Part shown: positions 16,301 to 61,708 of the stretch, piece by piece | Numbering within the stretch: the stretch's first letter is position 1 | How the letters are laid out: each line of letters starts with the position of its first letter | Assembly (NCBI GenBank): GCA_963693055.1 | Contig: OY843751.1 | Coordinates: 5,024,001-5,088,000, forward strand | Source: a bacterium | GTDB lineage: Bacteria; Zhuqueibacterota; Zhuqueibacteria; Residuimicrobiales; Krinioviventaceae | Direction: 5' to 3' | Length of the DNA stretch: 64,000 nt | Made by a program: the position numbers and the translations under genes | The notes under the pieces: generated by a model | Database searches by the model: none | Seen by the model: the letters and a program-made list of their open reading frames with translations, nothing else | Told to the model about the DNA's origin: nothing

Positions 16301-17727
16301 GAGACTGTAAACTTTTTTGTGTAAATGAATAGTAGTGCTATATTTGGATTTTCATCCTGTCTTTAAATATAATAGAAAATTGAGAAACAACAAAGGCCCA
16401 GTTTCTGATGGGCTGCGACCATTTTTTAGCAATATCCCTGTAGGCCAGAAACAGCATTTTTTTCAACGCATCATCGTGGGGGAACAGAGATTTGGTTTTA
16501 GTGACTTTGCGAAGCTGCCGGTGCAGAGCCTCTACACTATTTGTGGTATAGATCATTCGCCGAATTTCTTCGGGATATTTAAAATAGTTGGACAGGTTGT
16601 CCCAGTTTTTTCTCCAGGAATTGATAACAATGGGATATTTGGGTCCCCATTTTTGTTCAAGGCGATCCAGTTGCAGTTCAGCGTTTTCTTTAGTTGTGCT
16701 TTGATAAACCAGCTTCAGATCTTTGATAAATTCTTTTTGATGTTTTGATGCAACATAACGAAGCGAGTTACGGATTTGATGGATGATACAAAGCTGGACT
16801 TCAGTATCGGGAAAAATGCTGGCAATAGCATCCGGAAAGCCTTTCAGCCCATCTACGCATGCAATCAGAATATCTTCAACCCCACGGTTTCGTATATCGG
16901 TTAGAACAGACAGCCAGAAATTGGCGCCCTCGGACTGGTCGATCCAAATACCAAGTAAATCCTTAAAGCCTTCACCATTGATCCCCAGTACAGTATAAGC
17001 GGCCTTGTTTATAATACGCCCTTCGTCACGTATTTTATAGTGGATAGCATCCAAATAAACAATAGGATAAACACTATCCAACGGTCTTGACTGCCATTCA
17101 ACGACAAGCTCGCGTACCCGTTCGGTAACATTGGAAATAAATGTTGGGGAAGCGTCCAGGCCGTAGAGTGTTTCCAGATGGTCTTTGATGTCTCTTGTAC
17201 TCAGACCTTTGGCATATAAGGCAACGATGATTTCATCTATTTTGCCCAGATCACGCTGGTGCTTTTTGACAAGTACCGGGTCAAATTCTCCATTCCGATC
17301 ACGGGGGATTTTGATGTCAATTTCACCAAAATCTGTCTTCACTGTTTTGCTGCTGTGACCGTTTCTACTATTACCACTGTTATCACCTTCTGAAGAATGT
17401 CTCTCATAGCCCAAGTGCTGGGTCATTTCAGCTTCCATAATTTGGTCTGATATGCCCCTAATCAAATTCTTGACCAGACTATTTTTGCCCAGCAGATCGT
17501 CTGCTGTCTTGCAGTTTTCAAAATCTTTTTCAAGTTGTTTAATAATTTCAGGTGTAAGTTTCATTGGTAAATTCTCCTGTATTTAATAAAATGTAATATT
17601 TGTTTTTAAAACACAAGCGAATTTACAGTCCCTTGGAAAAGTGTGTGCAAATCAAAACTCGAAATTCAATAACCCTACGGGTTATTGAACCCTTGTTCAT
17701 GATTTACACAAAAATCTTTACACTTCC
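16301..17727 (-). mobile_element. IS256-family insertion sequence, 1427 bp
   Basis: 26-bp imperfect terminal inverted repeats (GAGACTGTAAACTTTTTTGTGTAAAT vs GGAAGTGTAAAGATTTTTGTGTAAAT, 21/26 identical). 8-bp target duplication CACTAAAA at 16293-16300 and 17728-17735. Confidence 0.95.
16338..17564 (-). CDS. IS256 family (Mutator-type DDE) transposase
   Basis: NSRNG, IPRDRNGEF, YAKGLSTRDI, WQSRPL, YLDAIHYK, VDGLKGF, QLCIIHQIRNS, IYTTNSVE. Confidence 0.97.
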   Translation of the reverse strand: MKLTPEIIKQLEKDFENCKTADDLLGKNSLVKNLIRGISDQIMEAEMTQHLGYERHSSEGDNSGNSRNGHSSKTVKTDFGEIDIKIPRDRNGEFDPVLVKKHQRDLGKIDEIIVALYAKGLSTRDIKDHLETLYGLDASPTFISNVTERVRELVVEWQSRPLDSVYPIVYLDAIHYKIRDEGRIINKAAYTVLGINGEGFKDLLGIWIDQSEGANFWLSVLTDIRNRGVEDILIACVDGLKGFPDAIASIFPDTEVQLCIIHQIRNSLRYVASKHQKEFIKDLKLVYQSTTKENAELQLDRLEQKWGPKYPIVINSWRKNWDNLSNYFKYPEEIRRMIYTTNSVEALHRQLRKVTKTKSLFPHDDALKKMLFLAYRDIAKKWSQPIRNWAFVVSQFSIIFKDRMKIQI

Positions 17728-43591: not shown

Positions 43592-44929
43592 TTGGAGGGC
43601 AACTTTATAAAAAAAAATATTACAGAAAAAATTTCGTTTTTTATGTTCATCATCTCTCTTTTGTGTATGGCTTATGGTTATGGATACCTGACTCACGAAT
43701 TAAAATTATTTCCATATTATCAGATAAAGAATGCAAACAGGTTTAGAGGTGAACTTTTAGCCAAACTCAAGGGCCATAAACAGTGGTTTTATCAAACCAC
43801 CGAAAATAACAAAAATGTTCCGGTTTATGAACATATCGCTGCATACAATGCTCCTACAATGTTTTCATGTATTGGCAATGATGAACATTTGTATATAAAA
43901 ATTGTCAATATGGACGGAAGTTTGGTACACCAATGGAAAACCGACTGGTTTGATCTCTGGCCCAAAGATGCTAAAATACATAAACGTTTTGTCCCCCAAA
44001 AACGCCCCGGCACAAACATTCATGGCATTGAGATTATGGATAATGGTGATATTGTTTTTATCTTTGAAGATATAGGCATGATATGTCTGGATGTATGTGG
44101 AAATTTAAAATGGCATATCAACTACTCGTTCCACCATTCCCTGCATCGTGATGAAGAAGGTAATTTTTGGGTTAGCGGAAATATTTGGCACGAATCCAGG
44201 ATCGAAAACTATTCATATTTAAATCCTGTGGTATTAGAACCTACTGTGGTCAAGGTGTCCCCTGATGGAAAGATATTGTCTGAAACATCAGTCTTTGACA
44301 TTCTTCGCCATAACGAGCTTGAATCTTTTTTGATCATGCAAACCAAAGCCAATATAACACCGCAAAATTCGGGTGATATATTGCACCTGAACGATGTTGA
44401 ACCCTTTCCTGCATCCATGGAACCCGGTTTTTTTCGTCCCGGCGATGTATTGATTTCATTACGAAATATGAACACCGTACTGGTCTATAACCTAGAAACA
44501 CTGGATGTTAAATATCAACGTACGGGCAAGTTCATTAGACAACATGATCCGGACTTTATAGACGGCAACACAATCTCCTTGTATGACAATAACAATTTGG
44601 ATATAAAAAATGACTCGGTACAAAGCAGAATCGTCATGTTCCATCTGCCGGAAGACCGGGCACAGGTTATCTATAGCGGCAGCAAAGAAGAACCTTTTTT
44701 CTCAAAAATCATGGGCAAGCATCAATGGCTTCCAAATGAAAATCTGTTAATAACAGATTCGCTATCCGGACGTGTATTTGAAATCGATAAATCAGGTAAA
44801 ATTGTCTGGGAATATTTTAATCTAGTAGAAAAAGGGTACACAGGCATTATAGGCGAAGCAAAACGGATATCCCCGGTTTTTAATAAAACATTTTTTGAAA
44901 AAAGAAAAAGTGAATGTAGAGACAACTAA
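43592..44929 (+). CDS. Arylsulfotransferase (ASST) family protein, membrane-anchored; start uncertain (TTG 43592 or ATA 43607)
   Basis: N-terminal TM; HHS, DILHLNDVE, LISLRNMN, RQHDPDF, YDNN, WLPNENLLIT, GRVFEI. Confidence 0.82.
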   Translation: MEGNFIKKNITEKISFFMFIISLLCMAYGYGYLTHELKLFPYYQIKNANRFRGELLAKLKGHKQWFYQTTENNKNVPVYEHIAAYNAPTMFSCIGNDEHLYIKIVNMDGSLVHQWKTDWFDLWPKDAKIHKRFVPQKRPGTNIHGIEIMDNGDIVFIFEDIGMICLDVCGNLKWHINYSFHHSLHRDEEGNFWVSGNIWHESRIENYSYLNPVVLEPTVVKVSPDGKILSETSVFDILRHNELESFLIMQTKANITPQNSGDILHLNDVEPFPASMEPGFFRPGDVLISLRNMNTVLVYNLETLDVKYQRTGKFIRQHDPDFIDGNTISLYDNNNLDIKNDSVQSRIVMFHLPEDRAQVIYSGSKEEPFFSKIMGKHQWLPNENLLITDSLSGRVFEIDKSGKIVWEYFNLVEKGYTGIIGEAKRISPVFNKTFFEKRKSECRDN

Positions 44930-44944
44930 CAACAAGGATCGGAC

Positions 44945-46261
44945 TTGAAAAATTTTAAAGAGAACCTTCCCAAATACATGTTTATGTTCTCATTTGTATT
45001 TATGGCATTTATTTATGGTTATATATGCAAAGAATTAAACCTGTTTCCTTCAAAACAGATACAAAGTGCAAATACTTTTCGAGTAACTTTGATGCAACAA
45101 CTTGCCGGAGAAAAACAATGGTATTACCAACCCACTGAGGAGGAACAAAACGTACCCATTTACAATAAAGACATGGCGTTTAATGGCTCTACCCTGTTTT
45201 CCTGTGTTGGCGAAGATAATTATTTATTTGTAAAAATCGTAGATATGGACGGCAGCCTGATTCACCAATGGAAAATCGACTGGTTCGAAATTTGGCCGGA
45301 TTGTGAGCATGTGCCCGAAGCAGATATACCCAAATCAAGACCCGGCACTCAAATCCAGGGAATCACATTATTAAACAATGGTGATTTGGTGTTCAACTTT
45401 TCCGGTCTGGGATTGGTACGCATGGATCCATGTGGCAAAGTTGTGTGGCGCCTTGCATATCGGACCCATCATTCAATCCATCAGGATGAACAGGGGAACC
45501 TGTGGGTTCCCAGGGATATCTCCCATCAATCCAAAGTAGCGGATTATCCTTTCCTTAAACCCATCTTTTTAGAACCAACAATATTAAAAATTTCTCCCGA
45601 GGGAAAAGTGCTCAAAGAAATCTCCATGTTAGACGTGCTTGTAAGGAACAATTACAAAAGTTTGTTAGTGATGTCTACCAAAGCCCGTACCGATGTAAAA
45701 ACCTCCGGTGATATTTTACACCTGAACGATGTGGAAACTTTTCCGGATTCCATGAAAGAAGGCTTTTTCACTAAAGGAGACATTCTGGTCTCTCTGCGCA
45801 ACATAAACACGATCCTCGTATTCAATGAATCAGACCTGAAAATCAAGTATCTTAAAATCGGTGATTTTGTTAGACAACATGATGCTGATTTTATTGATGG
45901 CAATACGATCTCGGTTTATGACAATAACAACATTGCTCAAAAAGATAAATTCATGTACAGCACTATAACAATACTTGATGTGGTAACCAACCAAACCCGC
46001 ATCCATTACAAGGGCACTCCGGAAGCACCTTTTTTCTCCAATTTGATGGGTCGTCATCAATGGTTACCCAATGGCAACATGTTAATCACAGAATCTTCTA
46101 CCGGTCGCGCATTTGAGATCAATGAAAATGGCAAAATCGTATGGGATTATTTTAATATAGTTGAAAAAGGATATGTGGGCATTATGGAAGAAGCCATACG
46201 TATCTCCCCTGATTTTAATCAGGAATTTTTTACAAAGAAAATTGCCGAATGTTCTGATTAA
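44945..46261 (+). CDS. Arylsulfotransferase (ASST) family protein, tandem paralog
   Basis: Same motifs (THHS, DILHLNDVE, SLRNIN, RQHDADF, WLPNGNMLITE); collinear with the upstream gene. Confidence 0.82.
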   Translation: MKNFKENLPKYMFMFSFVFMAFIYGYICKELNLFPSKQIQSANTFRVTLMQQLAGEKQWYYQPTEEEQNVPIYNKDMAFNGSTLFSCVGEDNYLFVKIVDMDGSLIHQWKIDWFEIWPDCEHVPEADIPKSRPGTQIQGITLLNNGDLVFNFSGLGLVRMDPCGKVVWRLAYRTHHSIHQDEQGNLWVPRDISHQSKVADYPFLKPIFLEPTILKISPEGKVLKEISMLDVLVRNNYKSLLVMSTKARTDVKTSGDILHLNDVETFPDSMKEGFFTKGDILVSLRNINTILVFNESDLKIKYLKIGDFVRQHDADFIDGNTISVYDNNNIAQKDKFMYSTITILDVVTNQTRIHYKGTPEAPFFSNLMGRHQWLPNGNMLITESSTGRAFEINENGKIVWDYFNIVEKGYVGIMEEAIRISPDFNQEFFTKKIAECSD

Positions 46262-46366
46262 TTAAAAAAGAACAATGAATTTTTTGAGCTATCAAAAAAA
46301 TATGAAATAAATAATAAATTTAGTATATTTAATGTTGTTAATATTGATATGTTTAGGAGTTACATC

Positions 46367-46603
46367 ATGAAAAATACATCGAAAATATTATTGGTTTTTT
46401 CAGCTATTTTACTATTCCTGGGCCCCCAAAATGCTGCGGCATATATAGGACCGGGAACCGGCTTGTCTGCAATTGGTGCTTTTCTTGCCTTTATTTTTGG
46501 TATCATTGTAGCTATTTTAGGTTTCTTGTGGTATCCCGTTAAAAGAATTTTCGGTAAGAAAAAATCTCAGGAACCTGATGAAATCAAAGGTGAAAACGAA
46601 TAA
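46367..46603 (+). CDS. Small membrane protein with AYIGPGTG motif
   Basis: ATG 46367 behind AGGAG; signal-like segment ending AAA, then YIGPGTG, one TM helix and WYPVKR. Confidence 0.75.
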   Translation: MKNTSKILLVFSAILLFLGPQNAAAYIGPGTGLSAIGAFLAFIFGIIVAILGFLWYPVKRIFGKKKSQEPDEIKGENE

Positions 46604-46983
46604 TGACTATTGTAGGTGCAATCATTCTGGTTGTTGGTTTTATTGCTATTATAAATATATTTGATCTTGTAGGAAAAAGTAAAAAAGTCATAGATGTGGC
46701 AAAGCATTCTGCAGATGTATTTCAAAATCCGGATATGAGTGATCTGGAAAAAGAAAAAGCCATGCAAAAAAATTCAATTATCCTTTTCAAATATTTTTTT
46801 ATTATTGTGGCTGTCTGTGCAATTGCTGTCTTTGCTCCCCTGGGTGTTATTTGGCTGGTCCAATTGACGGGTGTAACAACAGTTGAAAATGTACTCCACG
46901 CAACATTTTCATGGCAATTTATTGTGATCAGTTCTATCTTCATCATCGGCATTACCTGGTTGTTACGGAGAAAAAATGTCTGA
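46603..46983 (+). CDS. Hypothetical 3-TM membrane protein
   Basis: Coupled to both neighbours; MSDLEKEKAMQK loop between hydrophobic segments. Confidence 0.75.
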   Translation: MTIVGAIILVVGFIAIINIFDLVGKSKKVIDVAKHSADVFQNPDMSDLEKEKAMQKNSIILFKYFFIIVAVCAIAVFAPLGVIWLVQLTGVTTVENVLHATFSWQFIVISSIFIIGITWLLRRKNV

Positions 46984-48055
46984 TTTTGAAAACAAGTACT
47001 CTTTAATAGAAAAAATGCTGCACGATGTAGCCTTTAAAACCTGGCCCTCCCAAATTGCAATGTCTGATCTTGAAAGCCGATTAAACAAGAAAAAACTGAA
47101 AGGCATCGGCATTGAGCAGCCAACCTTTATAACCGCACTTCCCCGTGCCGGTACAACTTTGCTGCTTGAACTTGCTGTAGAAACCCAAGAGTTTGTTTCA
47201 CACACCTATCGTGATATGCCCTTTCTATTGACACCTCTGTTTTGGAACAGTTTTTCAAAAATCTTTAAACAATCAGATACGCCTCGCGAACGTGCTCATG
47301 GAGATGGCATGCTGGTCAGTGTTGACAGTCCCGAAGCCTTTGAAGAAATCATCTGGAAAGCGTTTTGGCCATCACGTTACAGAAAGGATAAAATTGTACC
47401 CTGGGCAGAACCAAGCTATCCGGAATTTGAAGCATTCCTTCGAGATCATCTTGTCAAGCTCATAGCCTTGCGTGGTAATGGTGAAAAAAGCAGACGTTAC
47501 ATTTCCAAAAACAATCTCAACATTTCCCGGTTAAAATATATCAACAAAATTTTCCCCGACGCAATCATCATTGTGCCCTTTAGAGATCCCATACAGCACG
47601 CGTCTTCACTGTTACGACAACATCTTAATTTTATCAACATTCATAAAGAAGATGCTTTTGCAAAAAAATATATGGCTGCAATAGGGCATTTTGATTTTGG
47701 TGAAAACCTAAAACCTGTAGATTTTGATAACTGGCTAGATTCTGCCGCTGTACAGGACCCACAAAAAATAGATTTTTGGCTGCAATATTGGTCAGACGCT
47801 TACAACTATATGATGAACAACAGTAATGACAACATTCAATTTATAGCATACGATGCCATGTGTGAAAATCCATCCAAACACATGAAAACCTTTGCGGAAA
47901 TGTTAAAACTGAAAAAACCGGACATCCTTTTACAACAAGCTGAAAGAATTGCTCCACCCAAACCCTATCAGGTCGGGCTTGACACTATTGATGCAACAAT
48001 TCTGGATAAAGTAAATTCAACGCATTTACGCCTGAAAGAAATATCCAAATTTTAA
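46976..48055 (+). CDS. PAPS-dependent sulfotransferase
   Basis: 5'-PSB loop FITALPRAGTTLL; ERAHGDG, SPEAFEE, YISKNN; 3'-PB motif FRDPIQHASS; YDAMCENP. Confidence 0.88.
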   Translation: MSDFENKYSLIEKMLHDVAFKTWPSQIAMSDLESRLNKKKLKGIGIEQPTFITALPRAGTTLLLELAVETQEFVSHTYRDMPFLLTPLFWNSFSKIFKQSDTPRERAHGDGMLVSVDSPEAFEEIIWKAFWPSRYRKDKIVPWAEPSYPEFEAFLRDHLVKLIALRGNGEKSRRYISKNNLNISRLKYINKIFPDAIIIVPFRDPIQHASSLLRQHLNFINIHKEDAFAKKYMAAIGHFDFGENLKPVDFDNWLDSAAVQDPQKIDFWLQYWSDAYNYMMNNSNDNIQFIAYDAMCENPSKHMKTFAEMLKLKKPDILLQQAERIAPPKPYQVGLDTIDATILDKVNSTHLRLKEISKF

Positions 48056-48215: not shown

Positions 48216-48596
48216 ATGGAATTACTGAACTATTACACAGGATGGACCAGTATTATACTGGGCTTTGTTGCCGGGGCGGTAATTGGTTTGTTTTTTTACA
48301 AAGACAATTGGGCTGGCGGCTATAACTCCTGGCAAAGAAGAATGATGCGATTGGGACACATCTCTTTTTTCGGACTCGGTTTTATAAACCTGGTTTTTGC
48401 ACTAAGCATTAAAAGCTTTCAAATTCAATTAACCACAGATCTGCCGTTTTACTTGCTGACCGCTGGTAACATCCTGATGCCAACAATATGTTTTTTATCC
48501 GCTTACAAGAGAAATTTCAGACAACTCTTTCCTCTGCCAGTTGCATGTATGTTAATTGGCACTTTAATCTTTATTTTAAATGGGGGTTTATTATGA
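48216..48596 (+). CDS. Conserved 4-TM membrane protein
   Basis: WAGGYNSWQRRMMRLGHISFFGLG motif; overlaps the radical SAM start (ATGA). Confidence 0.75.
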   Translation: MELLNYYTGWTSIILGFVAGAVIGLFFYKDNWAGGYNSWQRRMMRLGHISFFGLGFINLVFALSIKSFQIQLTTDLPFYLLTAGNILMPTICFLSAYKRNFRQLFPLPVACMLIGTLIFILNGGLL

Positions 48597-49927
48597 AAAT
48601 TGCACTGACAGCAATGAGTGGAATCCGAGCCTACGACCAGGAACTGTTGGAACTGGGGTTAACATTGCCCGGTTTTGTTGAAAGGAGTAAAGTAATAGCA
48701 TCTTTACCCAGCCTGGGTCTGTTAACACTTGCGGGTATGACACCCAGCCACCATGAGCTGGAATATATTGAAGTACCGGATATTGAAAACAAATCCGCAA
48801 TTGTAGACAGGTTAAAAGATTTTGATCTGGTTGCCATTTCAAGTTTTAGTGCACAAATTAAAGAAGCTTATGAGCTGGGCAATGCCTTATTACAGCACGA
48901 TGTGGCTGTTGTATTGGGTGGTTTACATACAACCGCCCTGCCCGATGAAGCAAAACAGCATTGTACGTCTGTGGTAGTAGGTGAAGGTGAACTCACATGG
49001 CAGCAACTGCTCAAAGATGCAGAAACAAAAAAGCTTGACCCGATATATGGAAATCGTGAGCAGGAATTTGATTTGAATGACGCTCCAATGCCTGCTTTTG
49101 AATTGTTAAACATAGACAATTATAATCGTCTGACCGTTCAAACCAGCCGTGGATGCCCTCACTTTTGTGAATTCTGCGCTAATACCATCATGCTCACCCG
49201 AAAATACAAACAAAAACCCCAAGCCAAAGTACTGGCTGAAATCGACAAAATCCGGGAAATATGGCCTCATCCCTTTATAGAGTTTGCAGATGACAATACC
49301 TTTGTAAACAAGGATTATTGGAAAGCCCTGTTACCTGAGCTAAAGAAAAGAAAGATTCGCTGGTTTACCGAGACCGATATATCCATAGCAAACGATACAG
49401 AACTTTTACATCTCATGCGTGAAAGCGGATGCGCGCAGGTACTGATTGGGCTTGAAAGTCCTACATCCGGTTCGCTTAGAGGTCTGGATACCAGAAGTAA
49501 CTGGAAAGAAAAACAATTTCCAAAATACATGCAGGCAATAAAAACCATTCAATCACAAGGTATTAGTGTAAACGGATGCTTTATATTGGGACTGGATGGG
49601 CAAGATACCTCCGTGTTTGATAAAGTCTATGACTTTGTTGAAAAATCAGGTTTACATGAAGTACAAATCACCGTACAAACGGCATTCCCAGGAACATTAC
49701 TTTATGAAAGATTGGTAAATGAAAAACGGATAATTGAATTAGGTGCCTGGGAAAAATGCACCCTTTTCGACATCAACTTTATCCCAAAGAACATGACCGT
49801 TCAAAAACTGGGCAAAGAATTCAGAGAATTGGGTGTTAAATTATATAACAAAGATTTTACCAGAAAGAGGCAGGACCATTTTAAAGAACTGCTGAGGGAG
49901 CTGGTCAGGTCCCGGCATTCAAATTAA
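48593..49927 (+). CDS. B12-binding-domain radical SAM protein
   Basis: LPSLGLLTLAG, VVLGGLH, VVGEGE; CxxxCxxC in SRGCPHFCEFC; FADDN, IGLES, FILGLDG, AFPGT. Confidence 0.92.
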   Translation: MKIALTAMSGIRAYDQELLELGLTLPGFVERSKVIASLPSLGLLTLAGMTPSHHELEYIEVPDIENKSAIVDRLKDFDLVAISSFSAQIKEAYELGNALLQHDVAVVLGGLHTTALPDEAKQHCTSVVVGEGELTWQQLLKDAETKKLDPIYGNREQEFDLNDAPMPAFELLNIDNYNRLTVQTSRGCPHFCEFCANTIMLTRKYKQKPQAKVLAEIDKIREIWPHPFIEFADDNTFVNKDYWKALLPELKKRKIRWFTETDISIANDTELLHLMRESGCAQVLIGLESPTSGSLRGLDTRSNWKEKQFPKYMQAIKTIQSQGISVNGCFILGLDGQDTSVFDKVYDFVEKSGLHEVQITVQTAFPGTLLYERLVNEKRIIELGAWEKCTLFDINFIPKNMTVQKLGKEFRELGVKLYNKDFTRKRQDHFKELLRELVRSRHSN

Positions 49928-49951
49928 AATCCTAACTGAAAGGAGAACCCT

Positions 49952-50335
49952 GTGAAAAACATCAGGTTAATATCTCTTTTGTTCTATACAAGCGCAGTAT
50001 ATGACGGGCTGCTGGGAATCATATTTCTATTTTTCCCACTGTCACTATACAAGGTTTATTCGGTTACCTTTCCAAACCATAATGGATACGTACAATTTCC
50101 GGCACTATTGTTAATAATATTTGGAATCATGTTTCTGAATATTGCCAGAAAGCCCGTACAAAACCGGAATTTAATGCCATATGGTATATTATTAAAAGCC
50201 GCCTATTGTGGTGTCGTCTTTGTATACTGGTTTTCAATCAATATTCCGGATATGTGGAAACCTTTTGCAATCATTGACCTGATTTTTGGTATCCTGTTCT
50301 ATCTCTCTTATCGCTCGCTACAAAACAACAATTGA
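49952..50335 (+). CDS. Hypothetical 4-TM membrane protein
   Basis: GTG behind AAGGAG; YDGLLG, NHNGYVQFPA, YGILLK. Confidence 0.75.
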   Translation: MKNIRLISLLFYTSAVYDGLLGIIFLFFPLSLYKVYSVTFPNHNGYVQFPALLLIIFGIMFLNIARKPVQNRNLMPYGILLKAAYCGVVFVYWFSINIPDMWKPFAIIDLIFGILFYLSYRSLQNNN

Positions 50336-60415: not shown

Positions 60416-61708
60416 ATGAAACTCAAGATCGCTTTATTATCCTATATCATCATTCAACTGGTGTATATACTGTTTTTTCAATTGCCGTTTGTGGGCGACT
60501 CGTCCATGTATTACAATCTGGCACAAACGTGTATACAGCACAACTCTTTTTATCCTGCGGCACACAACTTGAATGATGCATATATTATCGCCCCTTTATA
60601 TGTGAACTATATTATCCTGTTGTTACATATTTACAACTCGCCAACAACCATTCTTATCTTTAATATTATTCTGAATCTATTGAATCTGTTGTTATTGAGA
60701 AAAATAACAGACTTTATATTTCAAAAGAAAAAATATACAGATACAATAACGGTTCTGTATTTAATATATCTGAGCAGTCTGGGTGCGGTTCTAATGAACG
60801 TTACAGAACTCTTCTTTTGCACCTTGCTGTTTGCAGGATATTATTTTATCTTGAAAAACACCAAACAAAGTCTCTTTCTTGCGGGCATTTTTACAGCATT
60901 AGCCTTTGCCACCCGCCAGGTTGCGCTTGCTCTGATTCTGACTTTTTTTCTGGTTTCTATCATTCGCAAGCAATTTTCATTTTTAAAATCAGCCCTGCTA
61001 ATCTCCGGATTCGCCGTCACCCTGTTCTTGTTCGGACTGTTCACATGGTCTCAATCCGGCAGGTTCGTCATGTCTCCCAACACAGGCGCGTTGAACATGC
61101 TCATAGGCGCGAATGATAATGCTACCGGTGCTTATAACAATATTGCATTTGAAAAAGGACATGCGGGGTACATTGAAAATTTTGATAAAACCCCCTATAC
61201 TGAAAAAGCCGATTTCTGGAAAAACCAAACCCTATCATGGATCAAAAAGAATCCTGTCAAATGGCTCATGCTTTTCCCCAAAAAAATAGCACACATGTTC
61301 ATATATGATGATTGGTCAATCCATACCCTGGTGCCCACCAATGATTGGAATCTTTATATCATTGGTAAAACCATTATAACAGAAAAGAGTATAAAACCGG
61401 TCTTTGCGGGTGAATCAACATTCTTGAAAATATCATTTATATGGATTTACACATTGCATCATCTCGTTTATTTTGCACTTTTAATTTTCATGTTTTATCA
61501 ATTCATCTATTATAAAAAACAAAATCCGCAAGTGATGTTCAGTTGTATGCATATTTATATTTTTTGTATTATAGCAACCGGCGTAATATTGCTGGCATTT
61601 GGAGCTCCCCGATACAAGCACCCCATGTTTGTACTGCTATTGATAACCATTACCCCCATGATTTCTGAATTGAAATGGCCCAATATAAAAAAAAGGGTGG
61701 TTATTTAA
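60416..61708 (+). CDS. GT-C fold integral membrane glycosyltransferase (ArnT/PMT-like)
   Basis: Many TMs; GDSSMYYNLA, PLY, TELFF, ATRQ, NTGALNMLIGAN, PRYKHP. Confidence 0.7.
   Translation: MKLKIALLSYIIIQLVYILFFQLPFVGDSSMYYNLAQTCIQHNSFYPAAHNLNDAYIIAPLYVNYIILLLHIYNSPTTILIFNIILNLLNLLLLRKITDFIFQKKKYTDTITVLYLIYLSSLGAVLMNVTELFFCTLLFAGYYFILKNTKQSLFLAGIFTALAFATRQVALALILTFFLVSIIRKQFSFLKSALLISGFAVTLFLFGLFTWSQSGRFVMSPNTGALNMLIGANDNATGAYNNIAFEKGHAGYIENFDKTPYTEKADFWKNQTLSWIKKNPVKWLMLFPKKIAHMFIYDDWSIHTLVPTNDWNLYIIGKTIITEKSIKPVFAGESTFLKISFIWIYTLHHLVYFALLIFMFYQFIYYKKQNPQVMFSCMHIYIFCIIATGVILLAFGAPRYKHPMFVLLLITITPMISELKWPNIKKRVVI

Follow-up and report, generated by a model that had tools for sequence, protein, structure and literature searches.

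How an arylsulfotransferase (ASST) predicted to face the outside of the cell obtains its sulfate is the question raised by a five-gene cassette at positions 43592..48055 of the DNA analysed here, a 64,000-nt window of the complete 6.5-Mb genome to which contig OY843751.1 belongs. All reported arylsulfotransferases, with one putative exception named, cannot use 3'-phosphoadenosine 5'-phosphosulfate (PAPS), and for most ASSTs the natural acceptors and physiological roles are described as unidentified in a recent review (PMC13426309). PAPS is made in the cytoplasm, whereas these enzymes are predicted to face outward. The cassette suggests a concrete donor and route. It encodes two ASST paralogs, a 78-aa microprotein with a YIGPG motif, a small protein with three predicted transmembrane (TM) segments (the 3-TM protein) and a PAPS-dependent sulfotransferase (ST). 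We find that the ASST/microprotein/3-TM/ST cassette is conserved, widespread and uncharacterised, and we propose that an invariant tyrosine of the microprotein may carry sulfate from ST to the ASSTs. Coordinates are positions in the window unless prefixed; G000 denotes the source genome, and other L and G numbers denote loci.

The microprotein gene (46367..46603, + strand) is preceded by an AGGAG site. Hydropathy gives two hydrophobic segments (residues 7-25 and 36-54), corresponding to a predicted signal peptide (1-25) and a single TM segment that leads to a WYP motif and a basic tail. The cleavage-type sequence is AAA/YIGPGTG (the slash marking the predicted cut), which places Tyr26 (codon 46442..46444, + strand) at position +1. 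A scan for the motif shows a single microprotein of this kind in the source genome. Neither it nor the 3-TM protein matched a family above cut-off in Pfam, NCBIfam or PDB sequence searches, and an ESM Atlas search for names returned unnamed clusters only (0.89-0.90). Because a microprotein profile matches thousands of representatives in a HMMER search of 1.84 billion sequences (2962 at E<=0.001 and 1286 at E<=1e-10), the microprotein is a genuine gene and no chance open reading frame (ORF).

A first, word-filtered search gave 128 microprotein homologs, 110 of which were aligned. Y26, G28, P29, G30 and the terminal G-F-x-W-Y-P are invariant in all 110, as is the 29-residue spacing from Tyr to Trp; the residue before the tyrosine is Ala in 106. 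The C-terminus is variable, and the 12 residues that follow WYP have a mean net charge of +4.9. The signal-like segment, the AxA before the tyrosine and the basic tail predict that signal peptidase cuts directly before the tyrosine, leaving it outside and the tail inside; topology is here predicted from hydropathy and charge only. Since this first set was word-filtered, the tyrosine was recounted on the best 150 of the 2962 unfiltered HMMER matches. It is present at +1 in 150/150 (147 by pattern, two by eye and one after a pattern artefact was resolved) and in 66/66 metagenome copies. None of the 150 has Phe at +1, whereas the second tyrosine, that of WYP, has given way to Phe in 17 of these sequences; a hydroxyl therefore looks necessary at +1 but not at the TM end. 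As a candidate carrier the second tyrosine is ruled out by these 17 replacements and by its absence from all 22 checked copies fused to alkaline-phosphatase-fold (AlkP-fold) enzymes.

A scan of GTDB genomes returned 341 microprotein relatives, and linkage was counted on the best 80 of them. The 3-TM protein is encoded at 79 of these loci, ST at 78 and an ASST at 71, with all three at 70; in 36 of the 80 the 3-TM domain is fused to ST as its N-terminus. Nine loci have no adjacent ASST, and all five of their genomes that were checked encode one elsewhere. The hosts include Proteobacteria, Cyanobacteria, Acidobacteria, Planctomycetes, Verrucomicrobia and Bacteroidetes, among others. In the reverse direction, ST motifs by themselves were used to collect 80 metagenome loci, 28 of them too short to count. 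The microprotein is present in each of the 52 whose upstream sequence reaches 1 kb or more, the 3-TM protein in 48 of these 52, and an ASST in 17/17 with room on both sides. Among the tests that a first-pass annotation of this DNA had set beforehand for its proposal are co-occurrence of the YIGPG protein with sulfotransferases and invariance of its tyrosine; co-occurrence holds in both directions, and the tyrosine proved invariant. Clustering of the neighbours of the best 80 loci gave no fixed fifth gene. Duplicated ASSTs with a single microprotein occur in the window and at three other loci (L008, L041, L069). Among cultured, non-pathogenic bacteria the cassette is found in Paracoccus saliphilus, Tateyamaria omphalii, Rhodobacter sp. 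CZR27, Paroceanicella profunda and Novosphingobium capsulatum, and the plasmid-borne cassettes of Paracoccus, Paroceanicella and Novosphingobium sit among transport and catabolic genes. The cassette looks self-contained and mobile, with an acceptor that is not fixed by context.

In the window, all five ORFs lie on the + strand, and the family calls of the first-pass annotation, its coupled last trio and its description of the 78-aa protein were confirmed: the microprotein and 3-TM genes overlap by 1 base and the 3-TM and ST genes by 8. ASST1 (43592..44929, +, 445 aa) matches PF14269 with E 5e-36 and 125 bits, and ASST2 (44945..46261, +, 438 aa) with E 4e-40 and 138 bits, both above the cut-off of 27 bits; the two share 52% identity. 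The TTG start codon of ASST1 is uncertain, and a GGAGG sits just inside the ORF. Of the membrane anchors claimed for both paralogs, the predicted N-terminal one of ASST1, which would leave its domain facing outward, lies barely above the hydropathy threshold, and that of ASST2 below it. Both contain the His/His/Asn/Arg/His set given for the active site of E. coli AssT (PMC13426309), as His182, His265, Asn267, Arg291 and His318 in ASST1 and His176, His259, Asn261, Arg285 and His312 in ASST2; the match to the AssT structure (PDB 3elq) starts at residue 434, beside His436, and the other residues were mapped by order and spacing against the published list. In ASST2 numbering, H176, H259, N261 and H312 are present in 66/66 sequences and R285 in 62/66. 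A Cys at position 163 (43/66) and a terminal Cys (39/39 rows reaching it) may form a disulfide, which would fit an outer location. The source genome encodes a third, stand-alone ASST of the same type (G000:C1:4656230-4657540), with no microprotein gene nearby.

ST (46976..48055, +, 359 aa; PF13469, E 1e-12) has no hydrophobic segment by hydropathy and is predicted to be cytoplasmic. The best solved sequences found with its profile are human TPST1 and TPST2 (E 5.6e-10; PDB 5wrj, 3ap1) at 13-14% identity, and its motif residues R57-x-G59-T-T61, K178, R203 and S211 align with those of TPST1. On these sequence grounds a tyrosine is favoured as the ST substrate, but not established. The source genome has APS kinase genes within a run of cysC/cysD/cysN-like genes. 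This run (G000:C1:1157893-1171791), in which APS kinase alone was checked by Pfam and the other genes were read by eye, lies inside an apparent polysaccharide export cluster, a candidate acceptor pathway.

The 3-TM protein (46603..46983, +, 126 aa) has three hydrophobic segments. Its AlphaFold2 model (pLDDT 96.5) has helices at residues 2-19, 22-41, 47-87, 94-101 and 104-125, arranged as TM1, a helical hairpin, TM2 and TM3, with the orientation inferred from charge and from the ST fusions. The same layout is given for insertases of the Oxa1 superfamily (PMC5868721), and the 3-TM protein is predicted to be an insertase-like partner of the cassette. A near-length homolog search returned 11 matches. 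In two ASST-microprotein-X-ST cassettes, on Paroceanicella plasmid pD4M1B (L291) and in G094 (L250), the position between microprotein and ST is taken by a relative of a second membrane protein family, A3 (hhalign 93.6%, E 2e-7, 211 columns). The A3 profile in turn matches MJ0480/Ylp1 (PDB 5c8j, E 1.5e-9, residues 8-118), and 5/19 A3 members match PF01956 (DUF106; best E 1.8e-4). Since the A3 relative replaces the 3-TM protein in these cassettes, this slot can be occupied either by the 3-TM protein or by an Oxa1-related one. The source genome also keeps a separate YidC. An hhalign comparison of the 3-TM protein with YidC was negative, in a test insensitive enough that the positive control, A3 against YidC, failed too. 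Foldseek gave one weak match to a structure of the multipass translocon (7tut_8, E 2.8), which does not count as evidence. A three-gene form of the cassette without the 3-TM gene (L196, L204, L205) encodes microproteins that end in WLP, not WYP; WYP is likewise missing from A3-partnered copies, a hint that the TM end varies in step with the membrane partner.

The tyrosine-bearing module is also found with other enzymes. In the phylum of the window it occurs in 50/167 genomes, mostly as the N-terminus of a PF01663 (AlkP-fold) enzyme of about 730 aa. Of 20 regions around these matches, 19 encode a 273-aa A3 protein. A3 is present in 38/167 genomes of the phylum, each of which has a fused-type match; on our reading the fusion without A3 is confined to two incomplete genomes. 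These sister loci of sulfation type (L111-L128, L130) combine the YIGPG-PF01663 fusion, a second PF01663 enzyme and the Ylp1-like protein (19/20 loci), and several add ATP sulfurylase, APS kinase, sulfatase-fold membrane proteins or ASSTs. A C-terminal L-x-x-L-G-Y tail (L114:4408-4608, L120:636-4654 and others) ends small proteins of 60-100 aa and sulfatase-fold membrane proteins of the sister loci, and is a second candidate tyrosine handle.

Weaker matches in this phylum and in 301 genomes of a second phylum gave 20 further regions with 16 free microproteins of the A/Y[IL]D[PM] type (one locus, L273, has no microprotein match and is outside the 16). Nine of them directly precede a 464-aa protein and four a PF01663 enzyme, and the remaining three adjoin a sulfatase-fold membrane protein only. 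At L269 (5204-9892) a YLDPG microprotein has a sulfatase-fold membrane protein on one side and, on the other, a run of phosphonate genes (PEP mutase, TPP decarboxylase, alcohol dehydrogenase). The protein of 464 aa is homologous to NoeA (33%, E 8e-61); NoeA-type proteins are described as a kinase joined to an S-adenosylmethionine (SAM) methyltransferase, and NoeB as having an alkaline-phosphatase fold (PMC9758233). In the nodL-noeA-noeB operon of Ensifer, a 71-aa hypothetical gene lies between nodL and noeA (L287:3754-3969). Its product, WP_011970946.1 of Ensifer canadensis pT173b, contains AHA/YLDPGTGS and matches the microprotein profiles with E 5e-5 and 1e-18 in a nine-sequence test. In each of these systems the module would stand between an inside enzyme of a phenol-esterifying class and an outer enzyme of transferase type, the arrangement that a carrier role predicts.

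We propose a sulfate relay to which we attach even confidence: sulfate would pass from PAPS via ST to Tyr26, cross the membrane by an insertase-like step, and reach the ASST histidine and then an outer acceptor, with the carrier probably reused. The observations behind it are linkage, fusions, residue conservation, family assignments and partner swaps; what goes beyond linkage and conservation we infer. The 3-TM protein would keep ST at the inner face, where ST would sulfate Tyr26 in the manner of a tyrosylprotein sulfotransferase. The 3-TM protein, as a dedicated Oxa1-like insertase, would then move the short tyrosine-bearing N-tail across the membrane, which is the weakest step. The crossing would probably be repeated, because the sister module is fused to an enzyme of ~700 aa and is unlikely to be spent on a single use. 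Outside, since sulfotyrosine is an aryl sulfate, it could sulfate the active-site His of the ASST, and the ASST would hand the sulfate on to an acceptor beyond the inner membrane; where there are two or three ASSTs, they could serve different acceptors. This follows the first-pass annotation, which had read the tyrosine of YIGPG as one that could be sulfated and act as aryl-sulfate donor, a reading that co-occurrence and tyrosine invariance support at the level of sequence. Its suggestion that the 3-TM protein helps ST to reach the tyrosine gains from the Oxa1/Ylp1-related substitute in two cassettes, but not from direct homology. A wider reading, tentative and somewhat doubtful, is that AxA/Y-x-[GD]-P-G is a general, reusable carrier of groups across the membrane through a repurposed Oxa1-type insertase. 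The cytoplasmic loaders (TPST-like ST, AlkP-fold enzyme, NoeA kinase-methyltransferase) would then be interchangeable, and unloading outside would be by an ASST or an AlkP-fold transferase.

Several observations weigh against the relay or its generalisation. A fold search with ST ranks mycobacterial Stf9 (E 4e-6) and Stf1 (2e-5) near-equal to TPST2 (3e-5), so that fold similarity does not single out a protein-tyrosine substrate. Direct homology between the 3-TM protein and Oxa1 was not detected: hhalign gives 0.9% for the 3-TM family (A2) against A3, and the best fold matches to the 3-TM model (Z 9.3-9.4) are helical hairpins of a generic kind, the top 50 rows containing no Oxa1 member. The 3-TM gene is absent between microprotein and ST in 4/52 metagenome loci, and no separate 3-TM or A3 gene was seen in the NoeA-type loci. 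Oxa1 proteins are described as insertases (PMC5868721), and a reversible shuttle role for one is our own proposal. The GTDB loci were selected with tyrosine-containing patterns, so their tyrosine count is not independent. Glycan-related genes flank the cassette at only 13/58 loci, and none were seen in the neighbourhoods of orphan ASSTs.

The near-equal ST folds would suit a microprotein that is a structural subunit tying ST and the 3-TM protein to the ASST, its tyrosine docking in a pocket, while a membrane-soluble phenol or lipid sulfated by ST crosses alone or via the 3-TM protein, by analogy with the pyrone of caprazamycin synthesis. A tyrosine may be invariant because it serves in binding, a relay through a small molecule is on record (PMC6731281), and a shuttle drawn from core metabolism requires no cassette gene. 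We nevertheless consider this arrangement unlikely: Phe, found 17 times at the second tyrosine, never occurs at +1 in the 150 homologs, neighbour clustering gave no fifth conserved gene, and the recurrence of the tyrosine module with unrelated enzyme pairs (AlkP-fold, NoeA/NoeB) is explained more simply by a carrier.

A carrier could also be used once: its precursor would be sulfated in the cytoplasm, enter the membrane as a hairpin by way of the 3-TM protein or the general machinery, and be thrown away after cleavage and discharge. No reverse movement would then be necessary, the occasional absence of the 3-TM gene would be accommodated, and the signal peptide, very short outer loop, single TM segment and basic tail fit simple Oxa1-type substrates (PMC5868721). 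In many genomes, however, the module is joined to an enzyme of about 700-800 aa, a costly arrangement for one transfer each, and a few copies apparently have a very short leader only (L059, L060, L065, L078); we regard single use as quite improbable. Flow in the opposite sense, with the ASST loading the tyrosine from external aryl sulfates and ST regenerating PAPS from PAP, would draw on the acceptance of tyrosine peptides such as enkephalins by ASSTs and the resulfation of PAP by some PAPS enzymes (both PMC13426309), as well as on the transport and catabolic surroundings of the plasmid cassettes. The sulfated microprotein might instead be a product or signal in itself, for which RaxST/RaxX offers a bacterial sulfopeptide as precedent. 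ATP sulfurylase and APS kinase genes in AlkP-type sister loci, and cysC or cysD beside some ST-type loci, point outward, and duplicated ASSTs per microprotein fit several acceptors better than one product. Inward flow or an end product therefore seems highly improbable to us.

For the relay to Tyr26 and beyond, a glycan or lipid of the envelope is the probable acceptor. The cell-surface glycans proposed in the first-pass annotation find weak support: 144 flanking ORFs were picked and 95 of these, from 58 loci, were scanned, which gave the 13 loci with glycan-related genes noted above and other sulfation genes at 7/58, and no glycan gene lies next to the window cassette. A fixed acceptor pathway or a fixed fifth gene was found neither by neighbour clustering nor by the flanking-ORF scan. 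Directly after the cassette lies a B12-binding radical SAM gene (48216-50335; PF02310 and PF04055), flanked by two membrane genes of 126-127 aa without a Pfam match. A functional link between it and the cassette was set aside as weak (4/80 loci). Farther away, a 430-aa membrane protein (60416-61705) has no Pfam match at E 1e-6 and appears GT-C-type by eye. A 408-aa ORF (16341-17564, - strand) is a putative IS256-type transposase by its resemblance.

Among described systems, the cassette is most readily compared with DltB/DltX/DltD and PatA/PatB, in which a small membrane protein or peptide with an invariant tyrosine links a cytoplasmic donor to an extracytoplasmic transferase (PMC12148441). 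There, as described, the group is acyl, the tyrosine lies in a C-terminal hexapeptide, and a membrane-embedded MBOAT protein loads it (PMC12148441). In contrast, the cassette would carry sulfate on a tyrosine at +1 after a predicted signal peptide, with a soluble-fold ST as loader and an ASST as unloader. No MBOAT or SGNH protein is encoded in the cassette or among its conserved neighbours, and the microprotein is not a DltX family member. As in Cpz8/Cpz4 of caprazamycin biosynthesis, a PAPS-dependent ST and a PAPS-independent ASST would act in series via a carrier, which in that case is a triketide pyrone (PMC6731281, PMC13426309). In the cassette, however, ST and the ASST are predicted to lie on different sides of the membrane, the microprotein and 3-TM protein are constant partners, and no linked type III polyketide synthase was found among 11 window proteins, conserved neighbours and 95 flanking ORFs. 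The cassette thus resembles both kinds of system in its working, yet lacks the defining features of each.

ST shares its PAPS motifs with TPST1 and TPST2; for these enzymes and for Xanthomonas RaxST, sulfotyrosine is described as the end product, unlike in the proposed relay. The 3-TM protein matches the described layout of the Oxa1 superfamily (Ylp1/MJ0480, TMCO1, EMC3, YidC) without detected homology, and unlike these proteins the window's 3-TM protein is operon-bound and its family is often fused to an enzyme. The nodL-noeA-noeB operon of Sinorhizobium/Ensifer is similar in placing an AxA/YLDPG gene before noeA, followed by the inside enzyme and an AlkP-fold membrane enzyme, whereas the group carried would there be a methylated phosphate and not sulfate. 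The section of PMC9758233 on noeA and noeB describes no such carrier. Archaeal glycan sulfation is reported to use two other enzymes (PMC11980604). No description of the cassette was found in the literature searched, which covers few subscription papers, and the motif-string matches listed were unrelated by title.

If the relay operates as proposed, it would be an undescribed way of modifying molecules outside the cell, and would add sulfate, and probably phospho-groups, to the acyl groups for which tyrosine shuttles are described. Oxa1-type proteins would acquire a new job, and attention would turn to the 71-aa gene that has been overlooked in the nodL-noeA-noeB operon. On the wider reading, if it holds, an insertase would serve as a metabolic shuttle, a large ASST subfamily would have a natural donor, and the rhizobial host-range genes noeA and noeB would gain a testable mechanism.

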